Assembly (NCBI RefSeq): GCF_964194155.1
Contig: NC_135888.1
Coordinates: 116,622,001-116,686,000, forward strand
Reading direction: 5' to 3'
Length of the DNA: 64,000 nucleotides
Origin: Cetorhinus maximus
Lineage: Eukaryota
Shown here: piece after piece, positions 6,638-63,840 of the stretch
Layout of the letters: each line of letters opens with the position of its first letter
How positions within the stretch are numbered: the first letter of the stretch is position 1
The notes under the pieces: generated by a model
Seen by the model: the letters and a program-made list of their open reading frames with translations, nothing else
Told to the model about the DNA's origin: nothing
Database searches by the model: none
Program-made: the position numbers and the translations under genes

Positions 6638-8279
6638 CTGCTGATGCCTGACATTATCTGTACTGAAAGATTAATCAACACTGCCAAATATAAATTTGCA
6701 GTTCACAATCAGAAATTCTAAGACTGACAAAATAGTAGTACTTTAGTTTTTAAACAAACTGAAGGGACCAGGAAGCTGCTGCAATACGTGAACATATAAA
6801 AAATGAAGATGATATCTTCACTGGAAGCAAATAAGCAAACAAATATGACTGATTATAAAACTATAATGTGGATTGTAGAATATAAACTGTTAAGTAGGTA
6901 AGCTGTCTAAATCCTAAACTTTAGTGTGACAAGTACGTTATAGGAGAAAGTTATAGCATAGCACAAGATGTCTGTTCTGTACAATCCATTACTCTGTAAA
7001 ATCATGTTTTGCTTCCAACATTTGCTAGTGTCCAATTTAAACGTGCTGATTTTGATCGCCTCTTTACCCTGAGTGGAAGGGTCGCCAAGCTGACTTTGGA
7101 GTGTGGCATCTATTGAGTAGCTTTCCTGTAATTATTGGAATTTCTACTGACAAGAAACTCCGTAAATTAAACTCAGAATGGACAATAGCAGTAGCAATCA
7201 AACTGGCAGAACAAATTGCAAATTTGGAGAGAGGGGTATGCATGAAAGAAACAAAACGCAAGTCATAGGTAAGGGGGAAACTGGGGTATGCAAAGTAGCT
7301 AAATGCAGGCTAGATACTTCTAATTTAAAAAAAATTCAATTGTGATGCAGATGTCTTAATAAATGTACACAGTGATTTATAAATATCAATGTCTATTACA
7401 GTTTAAAATTCATTGCTGGCTAAACTATCTTTAAAGAAAAACGTTTTCTTATTATTATATTGGAAGAACATGGAGTTCAAAGTGATGATTACACAATACA
7501 AAGTCACAGAACGTGAAGGTACCCAACACTTATTTCGCAACAAGAATCGCAGCACTGAGTTTTCCTGATAGCATATAGGATTGGTAGTGAACTGCTCAGT
7601 ATTGTACATTGTTTTTGGAGGAAGAAATTAAATACATCACCACAAAGGATCACATACGGCAGTCTATTGCAGAGATGCCCAACCTTTAGGTCCAAGGTCA
7701 CACTTGACCCGAGCTTTGAAAATCCAACCCTAAAAGCACAAGCTATTTGTACTGACCCCCTCTGTGGGTTCTGTGTGTTTTTAGCTTTTATCTGTTAGCA
7801 CCTTGTGAAATACAAAAATCAATCGGAACAGTTACTGAAACATGCATCTATTTGGCAAAGTCAAATCCTTGCAACAGTGTGATTTACTGTTTTCTAGGTT
7901 CTCCTAGTCTGAGTGAAATCCAGATAACTGTTTCTAAAAAAACAGAATTTGCAATAAGCTTCAGTGGGCTAAACTGTCGTGGCTCAGTCAATACTATAAT
8001 TTGAATGAATGATTTGAGACCTCCCTTTTTTCAAAATCTTTGAGCACATCATCCTGGAGGTCTGGGCTCACCTTTCTCATTATTCTTTGTTTAAAGCCCT
8101 TCAGTCCAGTTTCTACTTTGCTTAGTGTCTATTGCAGCCTGACAAAAATCAACTTTTTTTTTTTGACTGTGGTATGTTCCAGTCTCCCTGTTCTCAACCT
8201 TTCTAGAGCATTTGATACATGCACACCACACTGTCCACTCCATGGTATCAACTGCATTTGGTCCCACTTTTTAAAGAAA

Positions 8280-9285
8280 TTTACTCTCTGAATGTGGGTG
8301 TCATGAGCAGGGCCAGCATTTATTACCCATCTTAAGTGTCCTGAGAAGATAATGATGGGCCACCTCCTTGAACTGCTGCAGTTTCTTCTCTTTGTAGTGG
8401 TTTGATATAACTAAGTGACTTGCTAGGCTACTTCTAAGGGCAATTGAGTATTTTTAAATTATTCGCTCACGGGGTATGGGCATCACTGGCTGGACCAGCA
8501 TTAATTGTCCAACTGTCCTTGAGAAGGTGAAGATGAGCTGCCTTCTTGAACTGCATTAGTCCATGTGGTATAGGTACACCGACATACTATTATAGAAAGG
8601 GAGTTTCAGGATTTTGACCCAACGCCTGAGAACGAATGCCGATATAGTTCCATGTCAGGATGGTATGTGGCTTTGAGGTGAAATTGCAGGTGGTGTTCCC
8701 ATGCAACTGCTGTCCTGCCATTCTAGATGGTAGAGGTCACGGGTTTGGAAGGTGCTGTCGGAGGAGCCTTAATGAAGTGCAGCAGTGTATCTTATAGATG
8801 GTACACACTGCCACCACTGTGCGTCAGTGGCAGAGGAAGTGGATATTGAAGGTGGTGGATGGGGTGCCAATCAAACAGGTTGCTTTGTCCTGGATGATGT
8901 CAAGCTTCAAGCGTTATTGGGGCTGCGCTCATCCAGAAAAAGAGAGTATTCCATCACACATCCGACTTGTGTCTTGTAAATGGTGGACATGCGTTAGGGA
9001 GTCAGGAGGCGAATTAACCATTGGAATTGTATACAAACCAAGTCAGGTAAGGATAGCAAATTTTCTTCCCTAAATGACATTAAAGAACTGTATGCGTTTT
9101 TTTTAAAAATACAAACATTCTTGACAGCTTTGTGGTCACTTTTTTAAATTATGAATTTATACCAGTTTTTTGTTCCCAGATTTCTTTTTACATTCAAATG
9201 ATCATCTTCCATGACACTTATTCTCTGCATTAACAGACTAGGCACCTGGATTACTAATATATTAATATAATTACTATATTACCAC
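8280..9285 (-). mobile_element. Cluster of 3' fragments of the tRNA-headed LINE family (see 48854) plus a related SINE remnant
   Basis: Two tandem copies of the tail 'gccagcattta..ccc..cctgagaag..g..gccttcttgaactgc' (about 8290 and 8460), followed by reverse-complement RT C-terminus and SINE-core remnants. Confidence 0.7.
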
Positions 9286-22787: not shown

Positions 22788-23160
22788 CCCACTCATGTGA
22801 TGTAGACGTCACTGACAAGGCCAGCATTTGTTGCCCATCCTTAATTGCCCTTGAACTAAATGACATGCTAAGCTATTTCTGAGGTCATTTAAGAGCCAAC
22901 CACATTGCTGTGGGTTTGGAGTGACATGTAAACCAGACCAGTTAAGGGTGGTAGATTTCCTTCTCTAAAGGACATTAGTTTTTATAATTAGTGATAATTG
23001 CCATGGTCACCATTACTGATATTAGCTTTCAATTCCAGATTTTATTAACTGAATTTAAATTCCACCAGGTGCCATGGTAGGATTTGAACCCAAGACCCCA
23101 AAGCATTTGGGTGGGCCTCAGAGCTACTAGTCCAGTGACATTGCCACTATGCCACCATCT
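22788..23160 (-). mobile_element. tRNA-derived SINE sharing head and core with the 5' end, and tail with the 3' end, of the LINE at 48854-52072
   Basis: Reverse complement shows box A tggcatagtgg, box B ggttcaaatcc, core 'aatgtcctttagagaaggaaatc..tggtctggtttacatgtcactcca' and tail 'ggatgggcaacaaatgctggcc'. Confidence 0.85.
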
Positions 23161-24660: not shown

Positions 24661-24902
24661 GGTAATATTTGGAAGCAGTTAAGTGCAGCTCAGCTAACTA
24701 TTTTATGGCCTTAGCTTTGTATTGAACTAACTGCCATTCTGTATTGGTTGTAAAGTCTGGGTTTGAGGTTTTAAAACTACTTGAAAGAACTTGTGTCAGG
24801 AAAATACCAATTTTTATTTCAGGCAAGATTTTACACCTTGCCGGTACATCAATAAAGTTGCTTTAAAAAACTGATGTTAAAAAATTGAGACAATTTGCTT
24901 AC

Positions 24903-25730
24903 CTCCACTTGCTGAGATGGGATTTTTAGTTTTGAGAGATGTACTTTGTTGCCTGACTTCATTTCTGCCAGACTACTGCCATGAGACTGGTTACCATAAT
25001 GCTCAGAAGGAATCTTTGGTTCTAATGATTCATTAGGGGCTTGATCCTGTCCATCCATAGGCCTTACATATGCAGTGGGTTTCTGTAACATTGAGTTGGG
25101 TTTGGACATCAATGCAGGAGTGAATGACTGCGAAGAATGCTGCCCACTGGCAGGAAATGTGTGAACACGTGATGGAGAGTCCCAGGTAGCATCCAGGTCT
25201 CGAGGAGATTTTGACCGATGCCGCTCCTTACTATGGTGGTCACTTCCTTGAGATCTGGAATGATTAGAACTTAAAGAAGAAGAAACTGCAGGTGGTTTAG
25301 CTGGACTGACCGAATGGGATTTTGAATGTTCAGATCCATGTTGGCCACTTCTCTTACGACTGCTGTATGAATCACGGTCGTGCCTCTGGCTACTGCTACT
25401 GCCAGTATTGCTGCTGCCACCACTAAGTCTTTGGCTACTGCCATGGCTGCTTTGCAACCCTGAACTTGACCTCTTCTGTGACTGTGAAGAAGTACCAGGA
25501 GCAGAAGTTGCTGGACCCACTGGAGTCCACTTACTACTTTGGTGAGATGTACCGTGTCTCTGCTCACCAAAAAAAGGTTGGTCAGGTTTCTCATCTGTAG
25601 TTGATGGAACTGTCCCTTTGGGTATGCCAATGAGCTTTTGAAGAGATTTATCTCCTATCAAGTCTTTCATTTCATCATAATTTCCCAACATGCTCTGGAT
25701 TCTGCTAGAAAGTTTATCTTCCGTTCGCCC
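24903..25730 (-). CDS. AFF4: AFF4 large coding exon ([23 protein letters not shown]...[12 protein letters not shown]...LKIPSQQVE)
   Basis: Acceptor aaatacag|GGG CGA, donor GTG GAG|gtaagc; 828 nt. Covers ORF 24849..25691. Contains AFF4-specific [11 protein letters not shown] and SKSPRD segments and the SIAH degron PTAYVRP. Confidence 0.98.
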
Positions 25731-26898
25731 CTGTATTTAAAAAAAAAATATATATTAAAGAGCAGAAAACTCAACTTTTAAATAAAATTGTTTAGCTTAT
25801 GATGAATGCAACAATTGACAGCTACAATGCATAAAGCGGCAACTTTGTGAATCATGACAATCACAATAGCAGGCAAAATACATCTACTGATACATACGGC
25901 CTTCAGTTTCAATTACAGCTGTCGCATTTTTTGGGATATGACCGAGAGAACCTATACTTGTTACATCATAAATCAACAAAAGGTCAAAATTACACGACCA
26001 GGTGCAGCTCTAACAATATCACAGAACCAAATACAGGTACAACCACAGTGTGGAGCCAGACAACAGTCAAAACTTTAGTATTGAACATTACCATTTAAAA
26101 ATACACCCTGAAAACAGGGTGAAATCTGATCCTGCATCTCTCTTACCCCAAAAAGTAGGACGTTTTCATTTAGGCTGTATCTTTCTCTGCTTGATTATGA
26201 CAAATTTGTTGAACTATGATTATTTGTGCAATGAATAAAGTTTACAGTAAAGGCAGCTATCATAGTGCCTTCGAAAAACTCAGTTTTACAATCCTTAAAA
26301 TTTATGAAATAATCGGGAAACTTAAGATTACATAGAATAGACCATAGCAAGAACGTAAGACATTGAACAAGCATGAAGTAGTAAACTGCCCTAAGTATAC
26401 ATGACACACATGCTATTGTGAAAAGTAAAGAAATAGTTTTGCTTTTTGGTGAACTGTGGCTCTTCACTACAAGGTTGAGTACCTCCAAGCGGCAGAAAAA
26501 CAAACTAACTTTTTCTCCTGAAACACATTCATGCATAGAAAATAAAAGTATAGCATGTTCAAAAAAGATTTAGCTTAAGCCCATCAAATTCATTTCACAC
26601 AAGACTCTTGAAGCCAAGACTTTCCATTTGGCGCCTGTGGAGTCCACAAAAATCTTTGTCATATTTGCCAATATAACATACATATCTAAGTAAATCATTA
26701 CATATGAAGCACCTTGAGGGGTGTAAATATTTTACATATTAAAAGCTTATTTATTCAGCTTCAAATTTGTTTTTGCCATCTCAAAACATTCCCATTTTAG
26801 GATCACAAGTGAATGGGACAGGACACATGGCTTCTTGTCCGAAATAAGCTGCATGTTCAAGGGTAATTATTAGCTTTGCTCACCCATATTTACTGTAC

Positions 26899-30168: not shown

Positions 30169-31336
30169 TTTTTTTTATTCATTTACGGGATGTGGGCTTT
30201 GCTGGCTGGGCCAGCATTTATTGGTCATCCCTAGTTGCCCTTCAGGAGGTGTTGGTGAGCTGCCTTTTTGAACCACTGCAGTCCAGTCCATGTGGTGTCG
30301 GTACACCAGCAGTGCTGTTAGGGAGGGAGCTCCAGGATTTTGACCCAGGGACAGTGAAGCACCAGTGATATATGTCCAAGTCAGGATGGTGAGCGACTTG
30401 GAGGTGGTGGTGTTCCCATCTATCTGCTGCCCTTGTTCTTCTAGATGATAGTAGTCATGGGTTTGGAAGGTGCTGTCTAAGGAGCCTTGATGAATTCCTG
30501 CTGTGCATCTTGTAGATGGTACATACTGCTGCTATTGTGCGTCGGTGGAGGAGAGAATAAATTTTTGTGGATGTGATGACAATCAAGCGGGTTGCTTTGT
30601 CCTGGACTGTGCCAAGCTTCCTGAGTGTTGTGGAGGCTGCTTTTATCCAGGGTAGTGGGGAGTATTCCATCCCACTCCTGATGTGTACCTTGTAGATGGT
30701 GGACAGGCTTTGGGAAGTCAGGTGAGTTACTCATCGCACGATTCCCAGTCTCTGACATGCTCTTGTAGCCACAGTATTTATATGGCTAGTCCAGTTCAGT
30801 TTCTGGTCAATTGTAATCCCCAGGATGTTGATAGCGGGGGATTCAGTGACGGTAATGCCATTGAACGTCAAGGGGTGATGGTTATATTCTCTCTTGTTGG
30901 AGGTGGTCATTGCCTGACACTTGTATGGCGTGAATGTTACTTGCCACTTGTCAGCCCAAGCCTGGATATTGTCCAGGTCCTGCTGCATTTGGACATGGAC
31001 TGCTTCAGTATCTGAGGAGTCACGAATGGTGAACATTGAGCAATCATCAGCGAACATCCCCACTTCCGGCCTTATGATGGAAAGGTGGTCATTGATTAAG
31101 CAGCTGAAGATGGTCGGGCTGAGGACACTAACCTGAGAAACACCTGCAGTGGTGTCCTGGGGCTGAGATGACTGACCTCCAACAACCACAGCCATCTTCT
31201 TTTGTGCTAGGTATGACTCCAACCAGTGGAGAGTTTTCTCCCTGATCCCCATTGACTCCAGTTTTGCTAGGGCTCCTTGATGCCACACTCAGTCAAATGC
31301 AGCCTTGATGTCAAGGGCAGTCACTCTCAACTTACC
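30169..31336 (-). mobile_element. 5'-truncated LINE (same family as 48854-52072) inserted into the Gypsy protease
   Basis: ORF 30731..31288 (WHQGALAKLESMGI...MFADD...) nearly matches ORF 50959..51258; A-tail appears as the T-run at 30169; Gypsy protease sequence resumes after about 31337. Confidence 0.93.
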
Positions 31337-35994: not shown

Positions 35995-37590
35995 CCTGGC
36001 TAACTAAGTTAAGGATGGGATCAAATTGAAAGTCATACAATGCTGTGAAGGTTAGTGTTAGGCCTGAAGATTGGCAAAATTTTAGAAGCCAGCAAAGGGT
36101 GACTAAAAAACAATGAAGGAGAAATTAGAATGCGAGAGTAAACACAGGAGAAATATAAAAACAGGCAGTAAGAGCTTCTACAAATACATAAAAAGGAAAA
36201 CACTCAAGTGAGTGTTGGTCCCCTAGAGGATGAGATAGAGGAATTAAGAACAGCAGACGCTTTAAGCAAGTATTTTCTGTCTGTTTTCATAGTGGAACAC
36301 AAAAAGCATCCCAATGATAACAGAAAATCAAGGAGCAAAAAGGAGGAACTTAAAACAATCACTAGAGAAAACTGGTAGGAAAATTAATGGGACAAAAGAC
36401 TGACCTGATGGCCAGCATCCTAGGTTCTTAAAACAAGTGGCTGCAGAGATGATGGATGCATTGGCTGCAATCTTCCAAAGTTTCCTAGTCTCTGGAAAGG
36501 TCCAAGCAGATTAGAAAACTGTGAAGTAAACATCTCTATTCAAGAGAGGAGGGAGACAAAGCAGGCAACTTTAGGCCAGTTAACCCGACATCTGTCACTG
36601 GGAAAATGTTAGAATCTATTAAGTAGCAGCAGGACATTTAGAAAATCATAATACGATCAAGCAGTCAACGTGGTTTTATGAAAGGGAAATAGTGTTTGAC
36701 AAATTTACTAGAGTTCTTTGAGGAAGTAACAAGCAAGGTGAATAAAGGGGAACCAATATGTTGTGTATTTGGATTTCCAAAAGGCGTTCAATAAAGTGCC
36801 GTACAAAAGGTTACCATGCAAGAGTTCATTTTGGTGGCAATATATTAGCATGGATACAGGATTGGCTAACCAACAGGGAGTAGTTAGGATAAATGAGTCA
36901 TTTTCAGGTGGGCAAACTGTAACTAGTAGGGTGGCAGAGGGATCAGTGCTGGGGTCTTAACTATATTAATGACTTGAATTTGTTGCCCAGGATTGTAGCT
37001 AAATTTACTGATTATAAAAAGATAGGTAGGAAAGCAGGTTGTGCCAAGGACAGAGTCTGCAAAGGGACATATGTTGTTAAGTGAGTGGACAAAAATTTGG
37101 CAGATGGAGTATAAATGGGAAAATGGCAGAAACAATAGATTATTTTAATGGAGAGAGACTGCAAGATGCTGCAGTATGGAGGGATCTGAGTGCCCACGTA
37201 CATGAATCACAAAAAAGTTAGCAAATGGAATGTTGGCTTTTCTGCAAGGGGGATGGAGTAGCAAAGTCTTACAGCTGTACAAAACTGTATTGTGCACAGT
37301 TCTGGTCTGCTTACTTAGGAAGGGATGTAATTGCATTAGAAGCAGTTCACAGAAGGTTTAGTCGGTTGATTGCTGGCGTGAATGGCTTGTCTTATAGGGA
37401 AAGATCAAGCAGGTTAAACCCATATTCACTGACATTTAGAGGAATTAGAGGTGATCTTATTCAAACATAAAAAATTAAGAGGGCTTGATAGGTGAGAGAA
37501 TGCTTCCCCTTCTGGGGGAAGCTAGAACTAGGGGGTACAGTTTCAAAATAAAGGGTCTCCCATTTAAGATAAGATTAGGAGGAATTTCTA
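35995..37590 (+). mobile_element. Decayed CR1 LINE (ORF2 RT and 3' portion)
   Basis: YLDFQKAFNKVP, GSVLG, QFWSAYLGRD..ALEAVHRRF, RGDLIQT motifs. Confidence 0.9.
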
Positions 37591-38584: not shown

Positions 38585-39225
38585 TTGCCACACAACATGG
38601 AGGATATCCTCCTACCAACAATGTCAAAGACAGACATCTGCCTCAGGTAGATTGGTCAGGCGAAGTTGAGCAAGTTTTCCCCCTCTTGTTGGTTCTCTGA
38701 CCACCTGTCGCAAGCCCAGTCTGACAAATATGCCCTCCAGAACTCGGCAACCTCAGTCAGTAGTAATGCTACCGAGCCACTTTGGACACTGAAGGCCCCC
38801 ACCTAGAGTACATACTGCGCCATTGCTACCCTCAGTCCAAGTGGTGCACCACGTGAAGGAGCACTGATTCACCAACTGAGGGAGGGTGGTTGATGGCACT
38901 CAGGAGGTTTGACCTGATGCCATGAAACATCATGTGGTCCGGAGACAAGGTTGAGTCCCTCCCATATACTACTGTGTTGCCACCTCTGGACAGTCTGTCC
39001 TGCCAATGGGGCAGAGCATGTCCACAGATATGGCTGGAACAGTCTGCGGCATTGGCTGTAAGATATGATTCCATGAGTATGACTATGTCAAGATGTTGCT
39101 TGACTAATCTGTGGGACAGTTTTCCTTATTTTGACAAGTCCCCAGATGTTAGCAGGGACCACTTTGCAGGGTCAACTGGGTGTGGTGTGCGTTTGTTGTT
39201 TCCGGTGCCTAGGTTACATTCTGGT
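38585..39225 (-). mobile_element. Endonuclease-region fragment of the tRNA-headed LINE family
   Basis: Minus ORF MESYLT..WQDRLSRGGNTVVY..ESVLLHVVHHLD parallels ORF 49271..49819; includes the upstream linker 'aacctaggcaccggaaacaac'. Confidence 0.85.
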
Positions 39226-41261: not shown

Positions 41262-42790
41262 TTTTCTTTCTTGGGATGTGGGCTTCACTGGCAAGGTCAG
41301 CATTTGTTGCACATTCCTTAATGCCCTTGAGATGGTGATGAAGAGCAATCTTTTTGAATTGCTCCAGTCAATCTGGTGCAGGTACACCCACAGTGCTACT
41401 AGGAAAGGAGTTCCAGGGTTCTGACCCAGCAAAAGTGAAGGAACAGGGATTTCAGATTCAAGTCAGCATGATGTATGGCTTGGAGAACTTGCAGGTGGCA
41501 GTAACTGTACGGAAAATATATTGTGCATTTTGTTCATTTAAAGCTACCATACACATATACCACCAGAGGGAGTTTAGAAGGAGAATAAAGGAATCAATTT
41601 TTTTATATAGCACATGCAGTTCTAATTTAATGTTTCTTTCTGAATCTTACTGTCCCTTCCCAAAAACTTCACAGTGCTATTCCGATGCATCTATTGCCCT
41701 TGTCCTTTTCAGGTGTAGAGATCACAAGTTTGGAAGGTACTGTCGAAGGAGCTTTGGTGAATTGCTGCAGTGCATCTTATAGATGGTACACACTGGTTCT
41801 ACTACTGCATGCCAGTGGTGGAGCGTGTGAATGTTTAAGTTGCTGAATGCGATGCCGATCAAGTAAGCTCCTTTGTCCTGGATGGAGCTTTGAGTATTAG
41901 AGCTACACTCATCCGAGCAAGGGGTGGACAGGCTTAAGGGAGTTAGAGGAGCTATGCACCAGAGAGCTCCCAGCCTCCAACTTGTCGCTGTAGCCACAGT
42001 ATTTATATGGCTGGCTCAGTCAAGCTTTTGGTCAATGGTAACACTCAGGATTTTAATGGTATAGAATTTTGTTATTGAATACAATGGGGAGATGATTACT
42101 TTTTCTCTTGTTGGGGATGGTCTTTGCCTGGCACTTGAGGCAGAAATGTTACTTGCTACTTATTAGCCCAAGCCTGAATGTTGTCCAGGACTTGCTGCAT
42201 GGACATGGACTGCTTCAGTATTGGAGGAGCTCGTGAATGGCAACTGAAGGCTGCACAATCATCTGCAAGCATTCCTACTTCTTGGTTTCCTCACCACCCC
42301 CGCAGGACCAGTATGGCAGACAGGTCCTCCAGGACATGGCCAGCTCGGTCAGTTGTAGTAATACTGAGCCACTCTTCATGGTGGGCATTGAAGCCCCCTG
42401 CCACCCAGAGTATATCCTGGGCCCTTGCAACCCTCAGTGCTTCTTCAAAATGGTGTTCAACCTGGAGCAGCTGGCACTTGTGTGCACCGAATGTTAAATG
42501 CCACTTAGCAGCCCAAGCCTGAATGTTAACCAGGTCTTTCTGCACATGGACATGGACATGGACTGCTTCAGTATGAGGAATCACAAATGGCACTGAACAT
42601 TACACATCCCCATTTCTGACCTTATGATGGAGAGAAGGTCATTGATGCAAGCAGTGAAAATGATTGGCCTAGAACACTACCCTGAGGAACTCCTGCAGTG
42701 ATGTCCTGGAACTGAGATAGATTGACCCCAACAACCACAGCCATCTTTCTTTGTGCTAAGTATAACTCCAACCAGTGGAGTCTCCCTCCA
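41262..42790 (-). mobile_element. Rearranged fragments of the tRNA-headed LINE family
   Basis: Tail at about 41270, CTIYKMHCSNSPKLLRQ, IQAWAAKWHLTF; an endonuclease piece (GGFNAHHEEWL) sits between duplicated RT segments. Confidence 0.8.
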
Positions 42791-43016
42791 CCTCCCCACA
42801 ATTCCTAATGACTTCAGTACGTTGGTTAAATATGATCTGCAATTCCTGAAACCAGGCTAGCCATTTCTATTTAACCCATCATTCAAGAGGGTTCCTAATT
42901 ACAATTTCAAACAATTTCCTTACAATCAAGCTAAGACTTGGCAATTCATCCATAGCACACTAAGAGCGAGACCAGGGCCTAATCTACTTCTGCAACTTGC
43001 TTATCTATTTAGCTTT

Positions 43017-43968
43017 TGATTTGGAGGAAAATGTAACTGGGCTAATTAGTAAGTTTGCAGACGACACTAAGGTTGGAGGAGTTGCAGATAGTGAAGAGGA
43101 TTGTCGAAGGATACAACGGGATATAGATCGGTTGGAGACTTGGGCGGAGAAATGGCAGATGGAGTTTAATCTGGACAAATGCGAGGTAATGCATTTTGGA
43201 AGGTCTAATACAGGCAGGAATTATACAGTAAATGGCAGAACACTTAAGTGCATTGACGGGCAGAGGGATCTGGGTGTACAGGTCCACAGGTCACTGAAAG
43301 TGGCAACGCAGGTGGATAAGGTAGTCAGGAAGGCATACGGCATGCTTGCCTTCATTGGCAGGGGTATTGAGTATAAAAGTTGGGAAGTCATGCTGCAGCT
43401 GTATAGAAGCTTGGTTAGGCCACACTTGGAATATTGCGTGCAATTCTGATCGCCACATTACCAAAAGGATATGGAGGCGTTGGAGAGGGTGCAGAGGAGG
43501 TTTACCAGGATGTTGCCTGCTCTGGAGGTTATTAGCTATGAGGAGAGGTTGGAGAAACTCGGATTGTTCTCACTAGAGCGATGGAGATTGAGGGGTGACT
43601 TGATAGAAGTTTACAAAATTATGAGTGGCATGGACAGAGTAGTCAGAAGCTTTTTCCCAGGGTGGAAGAGTCAATTACTAGGGTACATAGATTTAAGGTG
43701 AGAGGAGAAAACTATAAAGGTGATGTGCGGGGCAAGTTTTTTACGCAGAGGGTAGTGAGTGTCTGGAATTCGCTGCCAGAGGAGGTGGTGGAAGCAGGTA
43801 CGATAGTGGTGTTTAAGAGGCAGATTGACAAGTACATGAATAGGATGGGAATAGAGGGATATGGACCTGGGAAGTGCAAAATGTTTTAGTTGACGGGCAA
43901 TATGATCGGCGCAGGCTTGGAGGGCCGAAGGGCCTGTTCCTGTGTTGTACTTTTCTTTGTTCTTTGTG
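43017..43968 (+). mobile_element. Young 5'-truncated CR1 LINE (RT C-terminus plus 3' UTR)
   Basis: LISKFADDTKVGG...WQMEFNLDKCEVMHFG...RPHLEYCVQF, few disruptions; typical CR1 3' end 'gggccgaagggcctgttcctgtgttgtac' plus the (tctttgt) tail. Confidence 0.95.
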
Positions 43969-47949: not shown

Positions 47950-48830
47950 GCCTTTACCAACCTCAAATTCAGGACCATCTCTGAAGCCGACCACACACTC
48001 CTCCTTCCAAGTTCAGTAACCACACCCTATAGGCCATAAGATTGTGCTTGCTTTGTTTATCTGCCAGATCTGGCTGTACCACCTCAAACTGTACCATCAC
48101 TCCCTCTCCTTAGAGGAATCCAAGAACATCTGTAGAGCTGAAATCCAACCCCCCCACCCACAACCACTTCATGACAAACTCTCCTCAGAAATACCTTCAA
48201 CATGGAATCAAATTAGAAACTTTTTCTAACTACTGCTTTACCTGTTGTAGCCTCTTTAATGTTCAACTATTAGCTCTCACTTTCCCTCCTAAGTCCTCGA
48301 CCCAAATCTCCCTCAGCACATCTTGCCCATGAAACGGACAACTTACTCTCTTCATCCCTTCTTAAGGCAACACATACTTCATCAGCCCCAATTTTGCCAA
48401 CTGTCACTCCTTGTTAGAGCTAATCCTGCGTGCCTTCCATCTGATCCACAGTTCAGAATCTATGCTGGTGAGATGGTAACTATGACTCTCGCCACATCCC
48501 ACTTGACTTCTCCATCACCTTCCACAATGCTAATCATTCCTTTATGGCAGTCTTATCTAGTTCTACTTATATCTATCAGAATACAGGCACTACACCACCT
48601 CAAAGGAGCTACCATGGTCTGCCCTCAAGTCACTTCCCATAACATTTACACACTATGTTGGTGATATTACCCAGAATAGATTAGTTTCAAATGTATATTA
48701 ATGACCTGCCTTGCCCATTCATCCAAATGTTGTTGCTACACTCCAATTGCCCGTCTGACATGAAAACTTGAATAAGTCAAAATCTTCATCTGCTTTGTCA
48801 GGGAACTAACAGCAACTCTTGCCTTGACTG
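47950..48830 (+). mobile_element. Highly decayed L2-like fragment
   Basis: C-rich composition with remnant similarity to the other L2 copies; no intact motif. Confidence 0.4.
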
Positions 48831-48853
48831 CCATCCAGGAAGGGCAGGACTTC

Positions 48854-51800
48854 GGGAGGCGATGGCGTAGTGGTATTGACGCTGGACTAGTAATCCAGAG
48901 ACCCAGGGTAATGCACTGGGGACCCGGGTTCGAATCCGGCCATGGCAGAGGATGGAATTTGAATTCAATTTAAAAAAAATCTGGAATTAGAAGTGCAATT
49001 GTGACCATGACACCGTCGATTGTTGTAAAAACCCTAATGGTCCTTTAGGGAAGGAAATCTGTCATTCTTACCTGGTCTGGCCTACATGAGACTCCAGACC
49101 CACAGCTATGTGGTTGACTCTTAAGTGCCCTCTGAATTGTAACAAACCGCTATAAAGACACAAAAAAGGAATGAAACCGGAGGGACTACCGGGCATCAAC
49201 CTAAGCACCGGAAACGACAACGGCAATCGAAAGCCTGTCGACCCTGCAAAGTCCTCCTTACTGGGGGCTAGTGCCAAAATTGGGAGAGCTGTCTCCCAGA
49301 CTAGTCAAGCAACAGCCTGATATAGTCATCCTCACGGAATCATACCTTACAGATAACGTCCCAGACTCCACAATCACCATCTCTAGCTATGTCATGCCCC
49401 ACCAGCAGGACAGATCCAGCAAAGGCGGCGGCACAGTGGTATACAGTCGGGAGGGAGTTGCTCTGGCAGTCCTCAACATCGACTCCAGATCCCAGGAAGT
49501 CTCATGGCATCAGGCTAAATATGGGCAAGGAAACCTCCTGCTGATTACCACGTACCACCCTCCCTCAGCTGATGAATCAGTGCTCCTCCATGTTGAACAT
49601 CACTTGGAGGTGACACTGAGGGTGGCAAGGGCGCAGAATGTTCTCAGGGTGGGGGACTTCAATGTCCTTCACCAAGAGTGGCTCGGCAGCACCACTACTG
49701 ACCAAACTGGCCGAGTCCTAAATGGCTCTGCGGCAGGTGGTGAGGTAACCAACAAGAAGGAAAAGCATACTTGCCCTCATCCTCATCAACCTGCCTGCCA
49801 CAGATGCATCTGTCTATGACAGTATCAGTAGGAGTGACCACCGCACAGTCATTACAGAGATTAAGTCCCGTCTTCACATTGAGGATACCCTCCATTGTGT
49901 TGTGTGGCACTACCGCCGTGCTAAATTAGATAGATTTTAAACAGATCTAGTAACTCAAGACTGGGCAACCATGAGACGCTGTGGGCCATCGGCAGCAGCA
50001 GAACTGTACTCGAACACAATCTGTAACCTCATGGCCCGGCATATCCCCCACTCTACCATTACCATCAAGCCAAGGGATCAACCCTGGTTCAATGAAGAGT
50101 GCAGGAGGGCATGCCAGGAGCAGCACCAGGCATACCTAAAAATGAGGTGTCAACCTGGTGAAGCTATAAACAGGACTACTTGTGTGTCAAACAGCATAAG
50201 CAGCAAGTGATAGACGGAGCTGAGCGATCCCACAACCAACTGATCAGGTCTAAGCTCTGCAGTCCTGCCACATCCAGTCGTGAATGGCGGTGGACAATTA
50301 AACAACTCACTGGAGGAGGTGGCTCCACAAATATCCCCATCCTCAATGATGGAGGAGCCCAGCACAACAGTCCAAAAGATAAAGCTGAAGCATTCGCAAC
50401 AATCTTCAGCCAGAAGTGCCGAGTGGATGATCCATCTCGGCCTCCTCCTCCTCCGGGGGTCCCTGGCATCACAGATGCCATTCTTCAGCCAATTCAATTC
50501 ACTCCATGTGATATCAAGAAATGGCTGAAGGCACTGGATACTGCAAAAGTTATGGGCCCTGACAAAGTTCTAGCAATGGCACTGAAGACTTGTGCTTCAG
50601 AACTTGCTGCGCCCCTAGCCAAGCTTTTCCAGTACAGCTACAACACTGGCATCGACACAGCAATGTGGAAAAGTGCCCAGGTATGTCCTGTACATAAAAA
50701 GCAGGACAAATCCAACCTGGCCAATTGCCGCTCCATCAGTCAAGATCATCAGTAAAGTAATGAAAAGGGGTCATCAACAGTGCTATCAAGTGGCACTTGT
50801 TCAGCAATAACCTGCTCACTGATGCCCAGTTTGGTTTCCGCCAGGGCCACTCAACTCCTGACCTTGTTAAAGCCTTGGTTCAAACATGGACAAAAGAACT
50901 GAACTCCCGAAGTGAGGTGAGAGTGAATGCCCTTGACATCAATGCAGCATTTGACTGAGTGTGGCATCAAGGAGCCCTAGCAAAACTGGAGTCAATGGGA
51001 ATCAGGGGGAAAACTCTCCACTGGTTGAAGTCATACTTAGCACAAAGGAAGATGGTCGTGGCTGTTGGAGGTCAGTCATCTCAGCTCCAGGACATCACTG
51101 CAGGAGTTCCTCAGGATAGTGTCCTAAGCCCAACCATTTTCAGCTGCTTCATCAATGACCTTCTTTCCATCATAAGGTCAGAAGTAGGAATGTTCGCTGA
51201 TGATTGCACAATGTTCAGCACCATTTGCGACTCCTCAGATCTGAAGCAGCCCATGTAGCAAGACCTGGGCAATATCCAGGCTTGGGCTGACAAGTGGCAA
51301 GTAACATTCGTACCATACAAGTGTCAGGCAATGACCATCTCCAACAATAGAGAATCCAACCTTGATGTTCAATGGCATTACCATCACTGAATCCCCCATT
51401 CTCAACATCCTGGGAGTTACCATTGACCAGAAACTGAACTGGACTAGCCATATATAAATACTGAGGCTACAAGAGCAGGTCAGAGGCTAGGAATCCTGCG
51501 ACGAGTAACTCACCTTCTGACTCCTCAAAGCCTGTCCGCCCTACAAGGCACAAGTCAGGAGTATGATGGAATACTCCCCATTTGCCTGGATGAGTGCAGC
51601 TCCCACAACACTGAAGAAGCTGGACACCGTCCAGGACAAAGCAGTCTGCTTGATTGGCACTACATTCACAAACATTCACTCCCTCCGCCACCAACGTACA
51701 GTAGCAACAGTGTGTACCATCTACAAGATGCACTGCAGGAATTCACCAAGGGTCCTTCAACAGCACTTTCCAAACCCATGGCCTACCACCTAGGAGGACA

Positions 51801-52072
51801 AGGGCAGCAGATAGATGGAAACACCACCACCTGGAAGTTCCCCTCCAAGTCACTCACCACCCTGACTTGGAAATATATTGCCATTCCTTTACTGTCACTG
51901 GGTCAAAATCCTGGAACTCACTTCCTAACAGCACTGTGGATGTACCTACACCACATGGGCTGCATCGGTTCAAGGCGGCAGCTTACTACCACCTTTTCAA
52001 GGACAACTAGGGATGGACAATAAATGCTGGCCCAGCCAGCGAGGCCCACATCCTGTGAATGAATAAACAAAA
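48854..52072 (+). mobile_element. Near full-length non-LTR retrotransposon (CR1/L2 group, Zenon-like C-terminus): tRNA-derived head, short core, then APE-RT ORF with no ORF1
   Basis: Pol III box A TGGCGTAGTGG (48863-48873) and box B GGTTCGAATCC (48927-48937). APE motifs PDIVILTES, GGGTVVY, VGDFN, SDH; RT motifs GPD, QFGFR, LDI..AFD, VPQDSVL, FADD; C-terminal YKAQVRSMMEY..W. Ends gaatgaataaacaaaa. Several frameshifts and stops. Confidence 0.93.
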
Positions 52073-54280: not shown

Positions 54281-54677
54281 AGGGAGAGGCAGTGGCATAG
54301 TGGTATTGTCACTGGACCAGTATTCTAGAGGCCCAGGGGGCTTGGGTTCAAATCCCATCATAGCAGATGGTGAAATGGTCAATAAAAATCTGGAATTAAA
54401 AGTCTGATGATGACCACTATACTACTGCCTAATGTCCTTTAGGAAAGGAAATCTGCTGGTCTGGCCTACATGTGACTCCAGATCCGCAGTAATATAAATG
54501 CCCTCTGAAATGACCTAGCAAGCCACTCAGTTGTGGTCAATAAAAAGGAGCAAAACCAGACAGGCCACCTAGGCACCGGAAACAACTGACACCACAGGGG
54601 CTGCAGCGGTTCAAGACAGCAGCTCACCACCAGGGCAATAAATGCCCACATCCCATAAATAAAATGAATTAAAAAAC
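54281..54677 (+). mobile_element. Internally deleted derivative of the tRNA-headed LINE (head, core, linker, 3' tail)
   Basis: Box A tggcatagtgg, box B ggttcaaatcc, core, linker 'cctaggcaccggaaacaac', then directly the LINE 3' end 'caccacaggggctgcagcggttcaagacagcagctcaccac...cccacatccca' and an A-rich tail. Confidence 0.82.
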
Positions 54678-57059: not shown

Positions 57060-57990
57060 TCAGATTCCATACCTTTGCCTTTGTTTCCCACCACCTCCCC
57101 CCACCCCCACCAATCTGGCAAATTCTTTATGCTTCAGATAATTATCCAATTCTCTTCTGAAAGCCTTGATTGAATTTGCCTCCACTATGCTCTCAGGTAG
57201 ACCATTCCAGATCCTAACCACATGCCGCATAAAAATGTTTTCATGTCACCGTTGCTTCTTTTGCCAATCATCTTAAATCGCTGTCCTTTGGTTCTTGACC
57301 ATTCCACCAATGGGAACAGTTTCTTCCATGCACTTTATTCAGACCCCTCATGATTTTGAAAACTCTAACAAATCTCCTCTTAACCTTCTCTTCTCCAAGG
57401 AGGCCAGCCCCAGCTTCTCCAATCTATCCATGTAAATGGTTCTAGGGATGAGGAGCTTACGAATTCTTCTGTACTCCCTCGATTGCCTTCACCTCCTTCC
57501 TAAAGTGTGGTGCCCAGCATTGGACACAATATTCCAGTTAATGCCGAACCAGGGTTTTTAAATACAGGTTCATTATAACTTGCTTGCTTTTGCGCTCCAT
57601 GCCCCTATATATAAAGCCAGGATCTTGTATGCTTTATTAACTTTCGCAAACTGCCAGCTTCAATCATTTGTGCACATATAATCTCAAGTCCCTCTGTTCC
57701 TGCACTCCCTTTAGAATTATATCCTTAATTTTATATTGATCTCTTCGTTCTTCCTACTGAAACAAATCACCTCACATTTCTCTGCATTAAATTTCAGTTG
57801 ACACTTGCCCACACATGCAATCAGTCTAAGTGCTTTGATGTTTAGCCTATCCTCCTCACAGTTCACAATTTTGCATTAATTTTGAAATTGTGCCCTGTAC
57901 ACTAAAGTCTAGGTTATTAACAAAGATCATTAAAACAGTGGTCCTAACACCAAACCTTGGGGAACCTCACTATATATATCTTCCAGTCAG
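57060..57990 (-). mobile_element. CR1 LINE 3' part, continuing at 61735-62255 beyond the Penelope insertion
   Basis: Reverse complement of the CR1 RT C-terminus (LEYCVQCWAP; 'ccccaaggtttggtgttaggacc' = PQG.VLG). Confidence 0.8.
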
Positions 57991-57991
57991 T

Positions 57992-58690
57992 AGTACAGAA
58001 CTTGAATTTTACTGAAAACAGACATTTTGTTTTGTACACATTAGGACAATCACAAGAATACTAATTTAAGGGGAAGCAACAACTTTATCTGTACGAGAAG
58101 AGAGTGCTGATTGGTTGGCAAGTGGGCTCTGATTGGCAGAGACATTGCCATGGAGAATGCACCAGTTAATGGTGATTGACAGTTAAAAGTCAAGCATTGT
58201 TTGAAATTTAAACCAGGCAGCTTGACCCTGATTGGTCAAGACATTGCCCTGAGGAATGAACCAGCAAATTGCTATCACTTTTGTTCAGCTAAAACAAACA
58301 CGATATAGATACATGTTCTTTCTGTCTGCAAAGAACAGGGCCGTGTATTAATATATGTAGCTTCCAGTACAAGCAAATGTGCCACACTGCAAGCCCAACT
58401 GATAATCTTAAATTGGTTGTCAGCATAATTTTTAGCACAATGAAGGTTATTTAGCAAATGTTGCCCAATTGCAGAATCACATCTAATGTTGGGCACTGTT
58501 TTGAGTTTTGCAAGCATGGGCTGGTTGGGTACCTTGCCCATTGCAAACAGCAGAAGGGACATGCAGTTTGATACGATCCACCAGTTTTTGGGACATATGG
58601 CCTACATACCTAGCATCACACTGACACTGAAATTCATATGCCACATTTGTGAGATGGCGGGAACGTCTTTTTGGCTTAATCCTGAACAGT
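57992..58690 (-). mobile_element. Penelope-like element 3' end (GIY-YIG), same family as 18690
   Basis: YEFQCQCDARYVGH, SAIGQHLLNN, LEATYI; colinear with 18690-19400. Confidence 0.9.
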
Positions 58691-58699
58691 CTTGACAAG

Positions 58700-59970
58700 G
58701 TGGTATTTACAATATATATTAATGACTTGGATGAGGGAAATGAATGTACTATTGCCAAGTTTGGAGATAACACAAAAATAGTTGGGAAGGCAAGCAGTGA
58801 GAATGACACAGAGGGATATAGACAGGTTAAGTGAGTGGGCAAAAATGTGGCAGATGGAATATGTCGGAAAGTGTGAGGTTATGCAATTTGGCAGGAAGAA
58901 TAGAGGAGCTGCATATTATTTAAATGGAGAAAGACTGAAGAAAGCTGCAGCACAGAGGGATTTGGGATCCTCGTGCATGAATCGCAAAAAGCTAGCACAC
59001 AAGTTCAGCAGGTAATAGGGAAGGCAAATGAAATGTTAGCTTTCATTTCAAAGGGAATGGAGTATAATAATAGGGAAGGCTTGCTAAAACTATACAAGGT
59101 ACTAGTTAGGCCACACCTAGAATACCGTGAAGTTTTGGTCCCCTTATCTGAGGAAAGATATACTAGCATTGGAGGCAGTCCAGAGAAAGTTCACTAGGTT
59201 GATCCTGGGGACGGAGGGATTTTCTTATGAGGAGAGATCGAGTCGATTGGGCCTGTACTCATTGGAATTTAGAAGGATGACAGGTGACCTTATTGAAATA
59301 CATAAGATTCTTAGGGGGCTCGATAGGGTAGATGCTGAGGGGTCGTTTCCTCTTGTGGGAGAGTCTAGGACCAGAGGGCATAATCTCAGAGTAAGGGGGC
59401 GCCCACTTAAAACAGAGATGAGGAAGAATTTCTTCTCTCAGAGGGTAGTCAATCTGTGGAATTCTTTACCTCAGAGGGCTGTAGAGGCTGGGTCGCTAAG
59501 TATATTCAAGGCTGAGATAGACAGATTAAATCAGTAAAGGAATCAAGGATCAAGGGGAGAAAACAGGAAAGTGGAGCTGAGGATTATCAGATCAGCCATG
59601 ATCTCATTGAATGCCAGAACAGACTCGATGGGCCGAATGGCCTACTTCTGCTCCTACATCTTATGGACAGGTAAGGATGTTTCCTCTTGTGGGTGAGTCC
59701 AGAACTAGGGGGCATTGTTTTAAAATTAGGGGTCACCCTTATAGGGCAGAGATGAGGAGAAATCTCTTCTCCCAGAGGGTTGTGCGACTTTGGAACTTTC
59801 TGACTCAGAAGGCGGGGTCACTGAATACTTTTAAGGCAGAGGTAGTAAGAATCTAAGGTGACCAGGGTACATAGGAATGTGGAAATCAGAAGCAAACAGA
59901 TCAGCCATGATTTTATTGAATGCTGGAGCAGGCTTGAGGGGCCAAATGGCCTACGCCTGCTCCTATTTTG
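58700..59970 (+). mobile_element. CR1 LINE 3' fragment (58700-59668) followed by a second CR1 3'-end fragment (59669-59970), nested within the Penelope structure
   Basis: FTIYINDLDEG..IAKFGDNTK, RPHLEY, FFSQRVVNLWNSLP; the segment FPLVGESRTRGH...3' UTR occurs twice. Confidence 0.92.
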
Positions 59971-59974
59971 CATG

Positions 59975-60740
59975 TTGGTGCAAATACGCGGACGCAGCAA
60001 GCAGTGAGGACAAACCCTGTCAATTATATCTTGCAGCAGCTCATCACTCTTACACAAATCCAGCAAGCACCTTTTTTTGTTTTAAGCTTACTTTTGAGCA
60101 AGGCTGGCAGGTTATCTTGAACTGTAGGTCCAATGGATACAAATTTGGACCAGCCATTAAGAATGGCGTGCATTTTGTTGATTTGGTCACGCTTGTTAAG
60201 GAAATCTATTCTCGTTCCTTTGTCAGGTATATGTCCAGATTGGTCTTAAGACCTCGCAACACTAAGACATTCATGTTGCACATGAAAATCAGACAGGTCG
60301 TTCAGAAACCCGCAATGTGTGCGCTAGATCAGCTAGGCATGCATTCAACAATTCAGCATCTTCAGTGGATGCTGGTTTGTGCTTGGAGAGGAGTTAGAAC
60401 TCAGCAAATGCCTCTTCCTGTTTGGTTTTGGATGAAGGCCCACCAAAAGTGAAACCATGCGCAAGAACAAACTCCTTGCTTTCTGAGAGTATCTGGGCAG
60501 AGAGATATGTTACATGTTTAGTGGCGTTGTTAACTATGTTGTGTTATCCGCTTAAATAAGTTTATGGTGCGTACATGTTTCAAACAGGTACTGTTTATGG
60601 TGCGGTCATCTATTGAGCCAATATAGCGGGATAAACGGATCAAAATCGACAAAAGAAAGAAATCTGCACACCTCAGGCCAAGTGCAGTGTAGGGCACGGC
60701 GTGAATTAGTCAATACATGTGTTGGGATTCTTACAGTCCC
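59975..60740 (-). mobile_element. Probable Penelope N-terminal region
   Basis: Minus strand near 60490-60440 encodes ...EFVLAHGFTFG, resembling the Penelope N-terminal 'LS..E..VL..GL.F' motif; it lies between the two Penelope arms. Confidence 0.5.
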
Positions 60741-61732
60741 ACGCACTATAAGAATGGTCTTGTCAGTAACCTGATAAATAGGGCCTAAGCCATTTGTTCA
60801 CCATGCTAGCTTGATGCTAAAATAGGGCACAAAGGCATCCTGCAGGATAATGACCAACCTGATCAGATCATTTTGCGTTGTATATACTCATGAACCGACC
60901 TAAGACCGCCACTTTCAGCCCTGAACAGTGCCCAGTGTACCACAGATTAACCTGGAAGTGAAAGGTATCTCAAAAATTTGAGCAACAGGTGAAGCTAGCT
61001 ATTTCACGCTGCTATACAGTAGCAACACAAGTGGTATTTGCCACAGGATGCTGTTGTCAAACCAAAAAGTAGTAGTTCTGCCTATCTCACAAATGAGTAA
61101 TGTGGTATATGAATTTCAGTGCTAGTGTGATGTGAAATATGTAGGCCGTACATCCCAAAGACTGGTGGATCATATCAAACAGCATGTTCCTTCCGCTGTT
61201 CACAATGGGCAAGGTACAGACCATACCCAACCAGCCCATGCTTGCAAAACTCAAAACCCAGTGCCCAACATTAGAAGTGATTCTGTGATTGGACATTTGC
61301 TAAGTAACCCTCAGTGTGCTAGAATTGCACTGACAACCAATTTAAGGTCGTCAGTCAGGCTCGTAGTGTGGCGCATCTGCGCAAACTGGAAGTTACATAT
61401 TAATACCCAAGGCCCTGTTCTTTGCAGACAGAAAGAACACGTATGCACATTGCGCCTGTTTCAGCTAAACAGAATAAGTGACAGACATTTGCTGGTTCAT
61501 TTCTCAGGGCAATGTCTTTACCACAGTCAAGCTGCCTGGTTTAAAATTTCAAACAATGCTTGGCACTCAACTGTCAGTCACTATCATTGGTACATTCTCC
61601 ATGGCAACGCCTCTACCAACCAATCAGCACTCTCTTCTCATACAGTGCGAAGTTGTTGCTTCCCCTGACATTCTTGTGATCGTCGAGTGCAAGATGAAAA
61701 ACTTTGACAAAATGTCAGTTTTCAGGAATATT
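60740..61732 (+). mobile_element. Penelope-like element 3' portion, inverted relative to 57992-58690
   Basis: Colinear with 20465-21475; KYVGRTSQRLVDHIKQH and SVIGHLLSNP. Confidence 0.92.
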
Positions 61733-61734
61733 CA

Positions 61735-62255
61735 TATAGCTTCCTTCAGTCCGATAAAGAACCATTCACCACTACTTTGTTTCCTGTCACTCAGCCAACT
61801 TCTTATCCATGCTGCCACTGTCCCTTTTATTCCACAGGATTCAACTTCGTTGATTAGCTTGTTACGTGGCACTTTATCAAATGACTTTTGGAAGTCCATG
61901 TACATCACATCAATCACATTACCCTCAACCTTCTATTACTTCATAACAAAAAAATCAAGTTAGCTACACACTATTTTCCCTTAACAAATCAGTGCTGGCC
62001 TTCCTTAATTAATCCACATTTGTCCAAGTGTCTGTCCCGAATTACCATTTCTAAAAGTTCTCCCGCCACAGAGGTTAAACTGACTGGCATACAGTTGCTG
62101 GACTTATCCTTACACACTTTTTTTAAAAAAAAACAATCATGTAAAATTTGTAAACCTCCAGTCCTCTGGCACCACTCATGTCTATGGGGGGTTGGCAATT
62201 AAGGCCAGTACCACTGCAATTTCTATCCTTACTTTTCTCAGCATCCTTGGGTGTA
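61735..62255 (-). mobile_element. CR1 LINE RT fragment (upstream continuation of 57060-57990)
   Basis: DVMYMDFQKSFDKVP, WIRSWLSDRKQ, PVSLTSVAGELLE. Confidence 0.9.
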
Positions 62256-62269
62256 TTTCACATCACCTC

Positions 62270-63840
62270 TGGAATTCCGCCCCCATGTCCATATTTGAAC
62301 CAAGGCTGTACTGAGATTTGGAGCCAAGTAGGACTGGCGAAAACTAAACTGTGCATTTGTGAGATTATTGATGATTACGTGTTGCTTGATCGATGATTCC
62401 TTCCATCACCTTGGCGATGAATGCAGAATGGGGCAAAATTAGCTTGATTGGATTTGTCTTGCTTTTTGTAAACTGTGCATACCCAGACGATTTCCCATTT
62501 TGTCAGGTAGATGTCAATGTTGTAGACTGACTGGAACAAGGCATACCTGGTTCTGAAGTACAAGTCTTCAGCATTATGACTGGGTTGTTATGGGGCCCAT
62601 AACCTTTGCTGTAGCCAGTATGTTCAGCTGCATATTGTTACGACATGGGCTGTATTGGATTGGTTGGAAGACTGGCTTTTGAGAGACCATGGAAGTGGCT
62701 GAGATGGATCATGCACTGGGCACTTCTGCTTGAAAACGGTTATAAATGCTTCAGTTTTGCCTTTTGCACTGATGATAGGTTCCACCATCATTCTGGATGT
62801 GTATGTTCATGGACAACCTCTTTACGCTAGGTTTAATTGTCCAGCTCCTTTCACAACTGATGTGGTATGACTGCAGAATTTCAATCTGATCCACTGGTTG
62901 TGGGATTCTCTACTCTCTATAGCATACAGCTTTTGCTGTTCAGTAGAAACGTAGTCCGTGGTGTAGTTTCACCAGGATAGGATAACACATCATTTTTAGT
63001 TATGCCTGGTGCTGCTCTCCTACATTCCTTGTTGAACCAGATTGGTCCCCTGGCTTGAGGGCAACAGTACAGAGTGTGATATGCCAGGCCATGAGGTTAC
63101 AGTTGTGCCAGAATACAATGCTGCTGTTGATGCCCCACAGCACCTCATAGGTGCCCCAGTTCTGAGCTGTTAAGATTTATTTTTACCCTATTTAGCACAT
63201 TGACTGTGTCACATGACATGGAGGTGACCTTAGTGTGAAGGTGAGAGTTGGTCTCCACAGGGATTGTGTGGTGGCCACTCCTACCAATACTGTCATGGAC
63301 AGATGATTCTGCAACAGTAGATTGGCGAAGATGAGGTCAAGTAGGTTTTGTCACCACCTGCTGGAGACCCAGTCCGGGACTCAGCCATCTAAGCCAATAG
63401 CGGTGCTACCAAACCTTCACCAGCATTGAAGTACCTCTCGCAGAGTACATGTAATGCTCTTGCTACAGTCAGTGCTTCTTCCAAGTGGTAATCAGCATGG
63501 TGGTGTACTGATTCATTAGCTGAGGGAGGGTGGTATGTGGTAATCAAAGGAGGTTTCCTTCCCCGTATTTGATAATACTACAAGACTTTATGGGGTCCAG
63601 AGACAACGTGAGGGTTCTTAGGGCCACTCCATCCTGACTATGTGCCACTGAGTCGCCAACTCTAATGGGTCTGTTGTGCTGGTGGGACGAGGCATACTCA
63701 GGAATGGGTGATGGAGGAGTCTGGGATGTTGGGGTAATTTTGAGAGTTGACTAGTTTGTGGGAGCGTTCTAATTTTGGCGCTAGTCCACAAATGTTAATC
63801 AAGAGAACTTTGCAGGACTGACTGGGTGGGACGAGCCCAA
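62270..63840 (-). mobile_element. Older decayed copy of the tRNA-headed LINE family (APE to RT N-terminal region)
   Basis: Reverse complement is colinear with about 49230-50900 (VYKKQDKSNQAN; 'ccatgacagtattggtaggagtggccacc'; 'cctccctcagctaatgaatcagt'). Confidence 0.82.

Follow-up and report, generated by a model that had tools for sequence, protein, structure and literature searches.

The closest described relatives of the element analyzed here are the Zenon retrotransposons of elasmobranchs. According to the main text and Table S2 of Stuart et al. (2026, PMC13343379), Zenon elements universally lack ORF1, carry a poly-A tail and are found in five elasmobranchs at >84% identity. The entries CarCar_, ScyCan_, RhiTyp_, HypSab_ and SquAca_Zenon belong to the same family as our element, with one open reading frame (ORF), no ORF1 and an A tail. 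Our subject is a long interspersed element (LINE) of Cetorhinus maximus, at 48854..52072 of a 64,000-nt stretch of contig NC_135888.1 (positions 116,622,001 to 116,686,000, forward strand; hereafter the window). By its sequence the element is an elasmobranch Zenon, and its placement in the CR1 group follows the published assignment. Two exact motifs match only Zenon rows of Table S2 (7/7 and 2/2). The published entry closest to our consensus (3,283 nt) is the white-shark one, and CarCar_Zenon-1 (3,288 nt) is by eye almost letter-identical to the consensus over the first 400 nt. The family and its lack of ORF1 are thus already published, which lowers the novelty of the find. The main text and Table S2 do not describe the features examined below: a tRNA-derived head, a depletion of RNA polymerase III (Pol III) terminators, an out-of-frame AUG and partner short interspersed elements (SINEs). 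The best explanation overall is, in our judgment, a tRNA-headed Zenon whose single ORF encodes an endonuclease (APE) and a reverse transcriptase (RT), and whose RNA is probably made by Pol III.

The head is visible in the published sequences themselves: all 7 elasmobranch Zenon consensuses in Table S2 (four sharks and a stingray) open with it in their first 400 nt, while no comparable head is recognisable by eye in the opening 400 nt of the hagfish and coelacanth consensuses. In the main text, tRNA, promoter and Pol III are mentioned 0 times, and SINE occurs only within a reference title. A first-pass annotation of the window had left undecided whether the element was catalogued; the family sequence, head included, is in Table S2. 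Our literature search, with Repbase, Dfam, SINEBase and most subscription papers outside its scope, returned no account of a tRNA-headed Zenon, of its SINE partners or of a Pol III LINE; the partner SINEs may be catalogued in repeat databases. The window copy has the following parts, where the consensus is the one built in this analysis:

48854..52072 (+): decayed full-length tRNA-headed Zenon LINE, 90.7% to the consensus
48854..48947 (+): tRNA-derived head with boxes A and B; Rfam tRNA match below threshold
48863-48873 (+): box A, TGGCGTAGTGG, read in the sequence
48927-48937 (+): box B, GGTTCGAATCC, read in the sequence
48948..49136 (+): core common to the SINEs, short (young) variant, ~190 nt
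49137..49244 (+): LINE-specific linker, 108 nt
49245..52010 (+): APE-RT ORF, broken by frameshifts and stops; the consensus frame is open from about 49143
51998..52072 (+): 3' tail common to the SINEs, with a predicted stem-loop, two GAAT repeats and a short A-run

The boxes stand as the first-pass annotation had read them, and head and core run into the APE domain about 400 bp from the start: the domain begins at 49245, ~390 nt into the element (Pfam Exo_endo_phos, E=3e-6). The best Rfam match to the head is tRNA at 48859-48947, although a weak one (19.3 bits against a gathering score of 29, E=0.3). Rfam ribozyme matches in 48700-49400 are absent up to E=10, a search that included no dedicated descriptor of the hepatitis delta virus (HDV)-like type known at the 5' end of R2, RTE and Ingi LINEs. 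Relative to the consensus, the window copy lacks 21 nt at the boundary of core and linker. The linker contains an ATG at 49171, in a frame different from that of APE, which starts 74 nt further on. The tail portion of ~65 nt is closed by the short A-run at 52072. The ORF is not intact in this copy: against the consensus protein it aligns in 7 pieces, with frameshifts and stops.

The join between head and APE is fixed throughout the family. In the 4.0-Gb genome, all 40 scored matches to a head-to-APE query span nearly the whole query, although such a query selects for the join. Of 39 further copies, 18 show collinearity along the whole element; their flanks are unrelated and their first bases identical. 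Exact 21-mers across the junctions give 3,979 genome matches for core to linker, 2,965 for the long SINE (S2) and 4,925 for the short SINE (S1), against 0 for each reversed control. At 7-9% divergence, 3,979 junctions would translate into some 18,000-29,000 copies, a very rough figure. An older LINE subfamily with a longer head yields 209 pattern matches, and 19 of the 30 fetched continue into APE. Full-length LINE copies start at the same base as the SINEs. Among 40 loci anchored on the core-to-linker junction, 30 lead into APE, 2 into a later part of the ORF and 6 into the tail, while 2 end; internal deletions of at least 200 nt occur in 15 of the 40.

Because the head-to-APE query favours joined copies, anchoring from downstream was added. 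The first 30 chromosome-ordered matches to a linker 21-mer all continue into APE; 23 reach the head and 7 are 5'-truncated. Of 29 copies anchored on APE, 11 reach the head (2 with insertions between), and the similarity stops in the core for 5, within the linker for 10 and at the start of the ORF for 3; apart from one pair, no group of them has a different upstream sequence in common. Full-length copies with a different 5' untranslated region (UTR) or an ORF1, which the first-pass annotation had named as the finding that would undo its proposal, do not appear: neither is present in the 29 APE-anchored and 30 linker-anchored copies. The proposal itself, an autonomous retroposon with a SINE-type 5' end, holds in so far as that end is fixed family-wide, but the missing ORF1 that had seemed its peculiarity is normal for Zenon (PMC13343379, main text and Table S2). 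A headless subfamily beginning in the linker was considered and rejected: 5 of the 29 APE-anchored copies end within 16 nt of each other, but the pattern is absent from the 30 linker-anchored ones.

Several individual copies deserve mention. Two APE-anchored copies, L089 and L097, are exceptional in having 539 bp in common (88%) directly upstream, which in L089 splits the head from the ORF; the piece may stem from a repeat that entered both copies at one site or close to it, or may mark a small insert-carrying subfamily. In four of the 30 linker-anchored copies (L416, L420, L437 and L441), the 5' truncations cluster in an interval of 8 nt (consensus 257-264), at a small core hairpin that is possibly a pause site of the RT. 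In L083, an inverted head piece directly upstream of a 5'-truncated copy resembles a twin-priming inversion. Copies L071 and L102 each contain an S1 SINE nested in the same orientation within a LINE of its own family, an arrangement that could date SINE against LINE activity. A simple exact search for target-site duplications in 32 two-ended copies gave one of 12 bp, with one degenerate case by eye, and hence no usable marker.

The consensus, a majority of 26 of the 40 copies with a 12-nt alignment gap in the core mended from 70 copies, has one open frame of 969 codons from stop to stop with APE and RT motifs, as the proposed check for a single ORF required. Some 420 nt precede APE and hold no long upstream ORF; the head forms hairpins like a D arm, an anticodon arm and a long variable arm. 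The beginning of the reading frame is unusual. Its first in-frame Met falls downstream of the APE domain, and none of the 12 AUGs ahead of APE is in frame. In 58 of the 72 copies measured, the last of these lies 74 nt before APE in another frame. In the consensus an upstream ORF of 35 codons begins at this AUG and runs over the APE start, and the AUG is visible in 6 of the 7 elasmobranch Zenon consensuses of Table S2. Homologs of the ORF, 30-43% identical to it, carry PF03372 and PF00078, and comparison with the PDB gave only weak matches to L1 ORF2p. In hagfish CR1-7_EBu, as given in supplement 2 of PMC7245038, the C-terminus resembles that of the shark ORF and the sense strand has many T4 runs, by eye, so that this element could serve as a natural control for terminator counts.

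The consensus tail folds as a stem-loop (z only -1.4), with the subfamily differences located in its loop and bulges. An A-run, mostly of 3-9 nt, follows the GAAT repeats in 71 of 76 LINE tails. In 20 of the 76, T3-T6 stands before the A-run in place of its first A's with total length about kept, and 46 of the 76 have one T. An encoded 3' terminator was rejected as the source of these T-runs, which we read as decay of the A tail after insertion; their arrangement suggests hairpin-templated mutation of the tail. The T3-T6 tails nonetheless give those LINE copies a Pol III terminator at their end.

Transcription of the full element by Pol III requires that its sense strand avoid terminators. In the terminator classes of Orioli et al. 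(PMC3141230), T4+, T3VT, TVT3, T2AT2 and T2CT2 are active to varying degrees, and isolated T3 and T2GT2 are nearly inactive. We counted the active set, which was chosen after the results for T4 and T3 were known. On the sense strand of the consensus the count is 0, as compared with 33 on the antisense strand, so that the depletion check proposed with the first-pass annotation came out positive. In 5,000 synonymous shuffles of the ORF keeping protein and codon usage, 5.4 active motifs were expected (P=0.001), and a first-order Markov model of the whole element expects 6.2 (P=0.002). T3 runs number 3 against 11.5 expected (P=0.0002), and the matching 4-run and interrupted-run motifs of A, C and G occur as expected. 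The five remaining T3 are all isolated and the two T2VT2 are both T2GT2, the nearly inactive classes of PMC3141230. The first 1,100 nt of the older-subfamily consensus likewise have 0 active motifs, while 19 individual copies carry 1-8 each, gained by decay.

Under the explanation we favour, TFIIIC would bind boxes A and B, and Pol III would start at the first G and stop at the first T-run of the flank; with a terminator-free body read through, each full-length insertion would bring its own promoter. Less securely than for transcription, ribosomes would initiate internally on the uncapped RNA, probably at the conserved linker AUG, upstream of which 11 other AUGs lie, and would then shift frame by -1 or re-initiate so as to read APE-RT. 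Pol III RNAs can serve as mRNA, and translation of R2 elements proceeds on uncapped RNA and needs no AUG to start. The Zenon protein would recognise the 3' stem-loop and insert the element by target-primed reverse transcription, both of which are established for related LINEs. As SINEs, short RNAs with the same head and tail would be mobilised in trans; the ends of SINE and LINE would likely be kept in step by template switching in the common core and tail. The complete proposal has, in our estimate, slightly better than an even chance: elasmobranch Zenon would be an autonomous coding retrotransposon transcribed end to end by Pol III, its ORF purged of terminators, its uncapped RNA translated via the out-of-frame AUG and its ends exchanged with those of its own SINEs all through the evolution of sharks and rays; LINE and SINE would then be two versions, long and short, of a single Pol III element.

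The exchange of ends is indicated by the SINEs. The young LINE and S1 have one head variant in common, and S2 has a longer variant, as does the dogfish LINE consensus. In a head-and-core tree of 54 copies, 18 S1 and 9 young LINE copies form one clade (99/99), and monophyly of the SINEs is rejected (approximately unbiased test, p-AU 0.00024). The sampling was partly directed: resemblance to the window head was the criterion for 10 of the 18 S1, and the long-head pattern that for the 10 old LINE rows. The 8 S1 chosen by their junction land in the same clade. One tail site also follows the subfamilies, so that heads and tails of SINE and LINE change together. A minor SINE, with 24 pattern matches, joins the young head to the exact S2 junction. 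Twelve elements of this kind were examined: 7 have an S1-type tail, 3 an S2 tail and 1 a cut tail, and 1 is a LINE. S1 is most simply this minor SINE minus 23 nt, and all SINEs therefore probably share one junction. A clean origin of both SINEs by independent deletion, first suggested by the tree, is weakened by this intermediate. The first-pass annotation had offered a choice between a LINE that captured its promoter from a SINE and a SINE that arose by deletion of the LINE. The concerted change of their ends and the minor SINE point to exchange rather than to one clean direction, and we favour one SINE junction with later exchange of ends. Since the lepidopteran Zenon described in PMC6740152 has no head, one was gained at some point, probably once, before the split of sharks and rays or via spread among them.

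Of the alternatives to a Pol III LINE, a chance insertion of a SINE before a 5'-truncated LINE or an assembly artefact has a negligible probability. The family covers 15.5% of the window, which makes adjacency common in principle, but thousands of identical junctions with different flanks in two subfamilies and five published species refute it, and the earlier judgment that chance adjacency was unlikely is borne out by the 3,979 exact junctions and the 18 of 39 collinear copies with unrelated flanks. A more serious alternative accepts the head as real and fixed but assigns the LINE mRNA to RNA polymerase II (Pol II), with a promoter situated in head, core or linker, or with read-through from the host, the boxes being kept through exchange of ends with Pol III SINEs. 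Non-LTR (long terminal repeat) elements are generally held to be transcribed by Pol II (as stated in PMC10886601 and PMC5786205), which would supply a cap, and the exchange of ends that it needs is indicated. It leaves unexplained the zero motifs across a 2.9-kb ORF that the SINEs lack; a capped RNA would still meet 11 upstream AUGs and an out-of-frame start; and full-length copies begin at the start base of the SINEs. We regard Pol II transcription as unlikely. Several observations nevertheless weigh against transcription by Pol III. T4 alone is not significantly depleted (0 against 1.8 in the synonymous shuffle, P=0.12). A CR1 consensus from this genome also shows slight depletion (11 motifs where 15.8 are expected, P=0.016, still 7.5 per kb); the null model may thus overestimate for consensus sequences, and the CR1 depletion speaks for Pol II as well. 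The 50 control LINE ORFs do keep many terminators, at ratios of 0.79-1.37 and no fewer than 6.6 motifs per kb, which supports the Pol III explanation, but their T content is higher (22-37%, Zenon 19.5%), and they are single sequences and only distant relatives. They come from 80 metagenome loci (50/80 with an ORF of at least 450 aa; best identity 37%, first aligned segment), which are too distant to represent Zenon and served only as T-run controls: none of the 80 has a box A/B pair just upstream of the ORF, 2 have one 0.6-2 kb upstream, and relaxed ARAGORN gave noise only. Isolated T3 is depleted although nearly inactive in human extracts, so another cause may contribute, and the terminator classes were defined for human rather than shark Pol III. 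The processivity of Pol III is held to limit such elements to well under 1.5 kb (PMC10886601). The linker has no canonical slippery site or significantly stable fold, and none of the fetched copies has an intact ORF; the family may be extinct in this genome. Contigs of four sequencing runs that may be RNA cover head and APE but give no strand, start or level, and were set aside as evidence. On the terminator evidence, which is indirect but specific, we consider it reasonably probable that the full 3.3-kb Zenon RNA is made by Pol III.

Two further explanations concern the origin of the SINEs, and neither is preferred to one junction with later exchange. [quoted passage not shown] Deletion is frequent, as the 15 of 40 junction-anchored copies with losses of at least 200 nt show, 6 of them passing straight from linker to tail; at sites in head and tail, S2 agrees with the old LINE and S1 with a younger one; and lepidopteran Zenon gave rise to the SIDE Persaeus repeatedly (PMC6740152). 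One-off deletions, however, have scattered breakpoints, and the minor SINE has the young head and an S1-type tail yet the exact S2 junction, which makes repeated deletion without exchange rather improbable. In the other, a SINE came first and gave its head to a headless Zenon by template switching, possibly via a shared core representing the former Zenon 5' UTR, which would extend the bipartite route of Kojima (2018) by one step. This is an appreciable possibility, if somewhat short of even. Persaeus matches the 5' end of lepidopteran Zenon and is described in PMC6740152 as without tRNA homology, the hagfish and coelacanth consensuses have no head in the first 400 nt by eye, and one SINE junction seems to persist across subfamilies. 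Against it, the APE- and linker-anchored copies contain no headless elasmobranch subfamily, and a SINE with the same head but another tail was recognised nowhere among 183 head-bearing elements, 19 of them unclassified.

The window also contains other pieces of the Zenon family, three of which (54281..54677, 38585..39225 and 22788..23160) have the structures described in the first-pass annotation:

54281..54677 (+): derivative with an internal deletion, in which the final ~115 nt of the LINE directly follow head, core and linker
22788..23160 (-): SINE of the older long-head subfamily (S2), with head, core and ~65-nt tail
38585..39225 (-): older 5'-truncated fragment from linker into APE, no head, 74% to the consensus
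30169..31336 (-): 5'-truncated 3' fragment of the same LINE, 90%
62258..63816 (-): older internal fragment from APE to the start of RT, 71-78%
41264..42780 (-): older rearranged fragments of the same LINE, 70-81%
8279..9101 (-): older 3' fragment with core and SINE-like pieces, 73-81%

The sister fragment at 30169..31336 has a Pfam RVT_1 match at 30734-31288. A large exon of an AF4/FMR2-family (AFF) gene lies at 24849-25736 (-; Pfam AF-4, E=4e-73). The full-length Zenon copy is 23 kb upstream of this exon and antisense to the gene, probably within an AFF intron, and most Zenon-family fragments of the window share the strand of the gene. Decayed pol pieces of an LTR retrotransposon at ~31986-34183 (+) have an integrase-like part ahead of RT and RNase H-like parts (Pfam RT_RNaseH_2), an order possibly due to a rearrangement or to the presence of two pieces. 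Canonical CR1-type LINE fragments, some inverted, are located at 42997-43880, 57135-62129, 18687-21483 and 36666-37476.

The prevailing division assigns LINEs to Pol II and SINEs to Pol III, with Pol III unable to carry long coding elements (PMC10886601). The usual products of Pol III are short non-coding RNAs. If the Pol III explanation is true, a family with thousands of copies in sharks and rays would break that rule, its 3.3-kb LINE having a promoter of tRNA type and an ORF free of terminators, and would provide a natural Pol III mRNA together with its translation, as well as a direct route between LINE and SINE. Among retrotransposons with Pol III promoters that are not SINEs, the TRIMp3 elements Cassandra, Helenus and Ajax resemble Zenon in their promoters derived from small RNAs, but are described in PMC10886601 as non-autonomous LTR elements of 0.3-1.3 kb that encode no protein, whereas Zenon is a 3.3-kb coding LINE. 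RTE-1_DAn and related elements in Repbase are LINEs with tRNA-like sequence matching many SINE2, a possible precedent that PMC5786205 mentions in one sentence, giving neither location nor function of the tRNA-like part; their clade differs from Zenon. HE1, SacSINE1 and CmiSINE, from the V-, Deu-, CORE- and Meta-SINE superfamilies, have HER1, CR1-4_DR-like and L2-2_CM as listed partners, not Zenon, and the core is by eye unlike the UCON3 rows in the supplement of PMC7245038, which sets the present SINEs apart from those with a UCON3 domain. The Persaeus SIDE of lepidopteran Zenon resembles the short forms more closely: it comprises short non-autonomous elements with both Zenon ends that follow the local LINE in phylogeny (PMC6740152). 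The shark SINEs likewise share both ends with Zenon, but Persaeus is described there as having neither tRNA homology nor a Pol III promoter, whereas the shark short forms have boxes A and B and are SINE2 by structure: S1 and S2 combine a head with both boxes, a LINE-shared tail of ~65 nt, high copy number and a fixed structure. Bipartite SINEs (Kojima 2018, PMC5786205) are similar in that SINE and LINE share more than the tail. In the systems described there, however, the tRNA head is on the SINE only and the partners are only RTE and Vingi, whereas in the elasmobranch Zenon an ORF-bearing LINE of the CR1 group carries the head itself.

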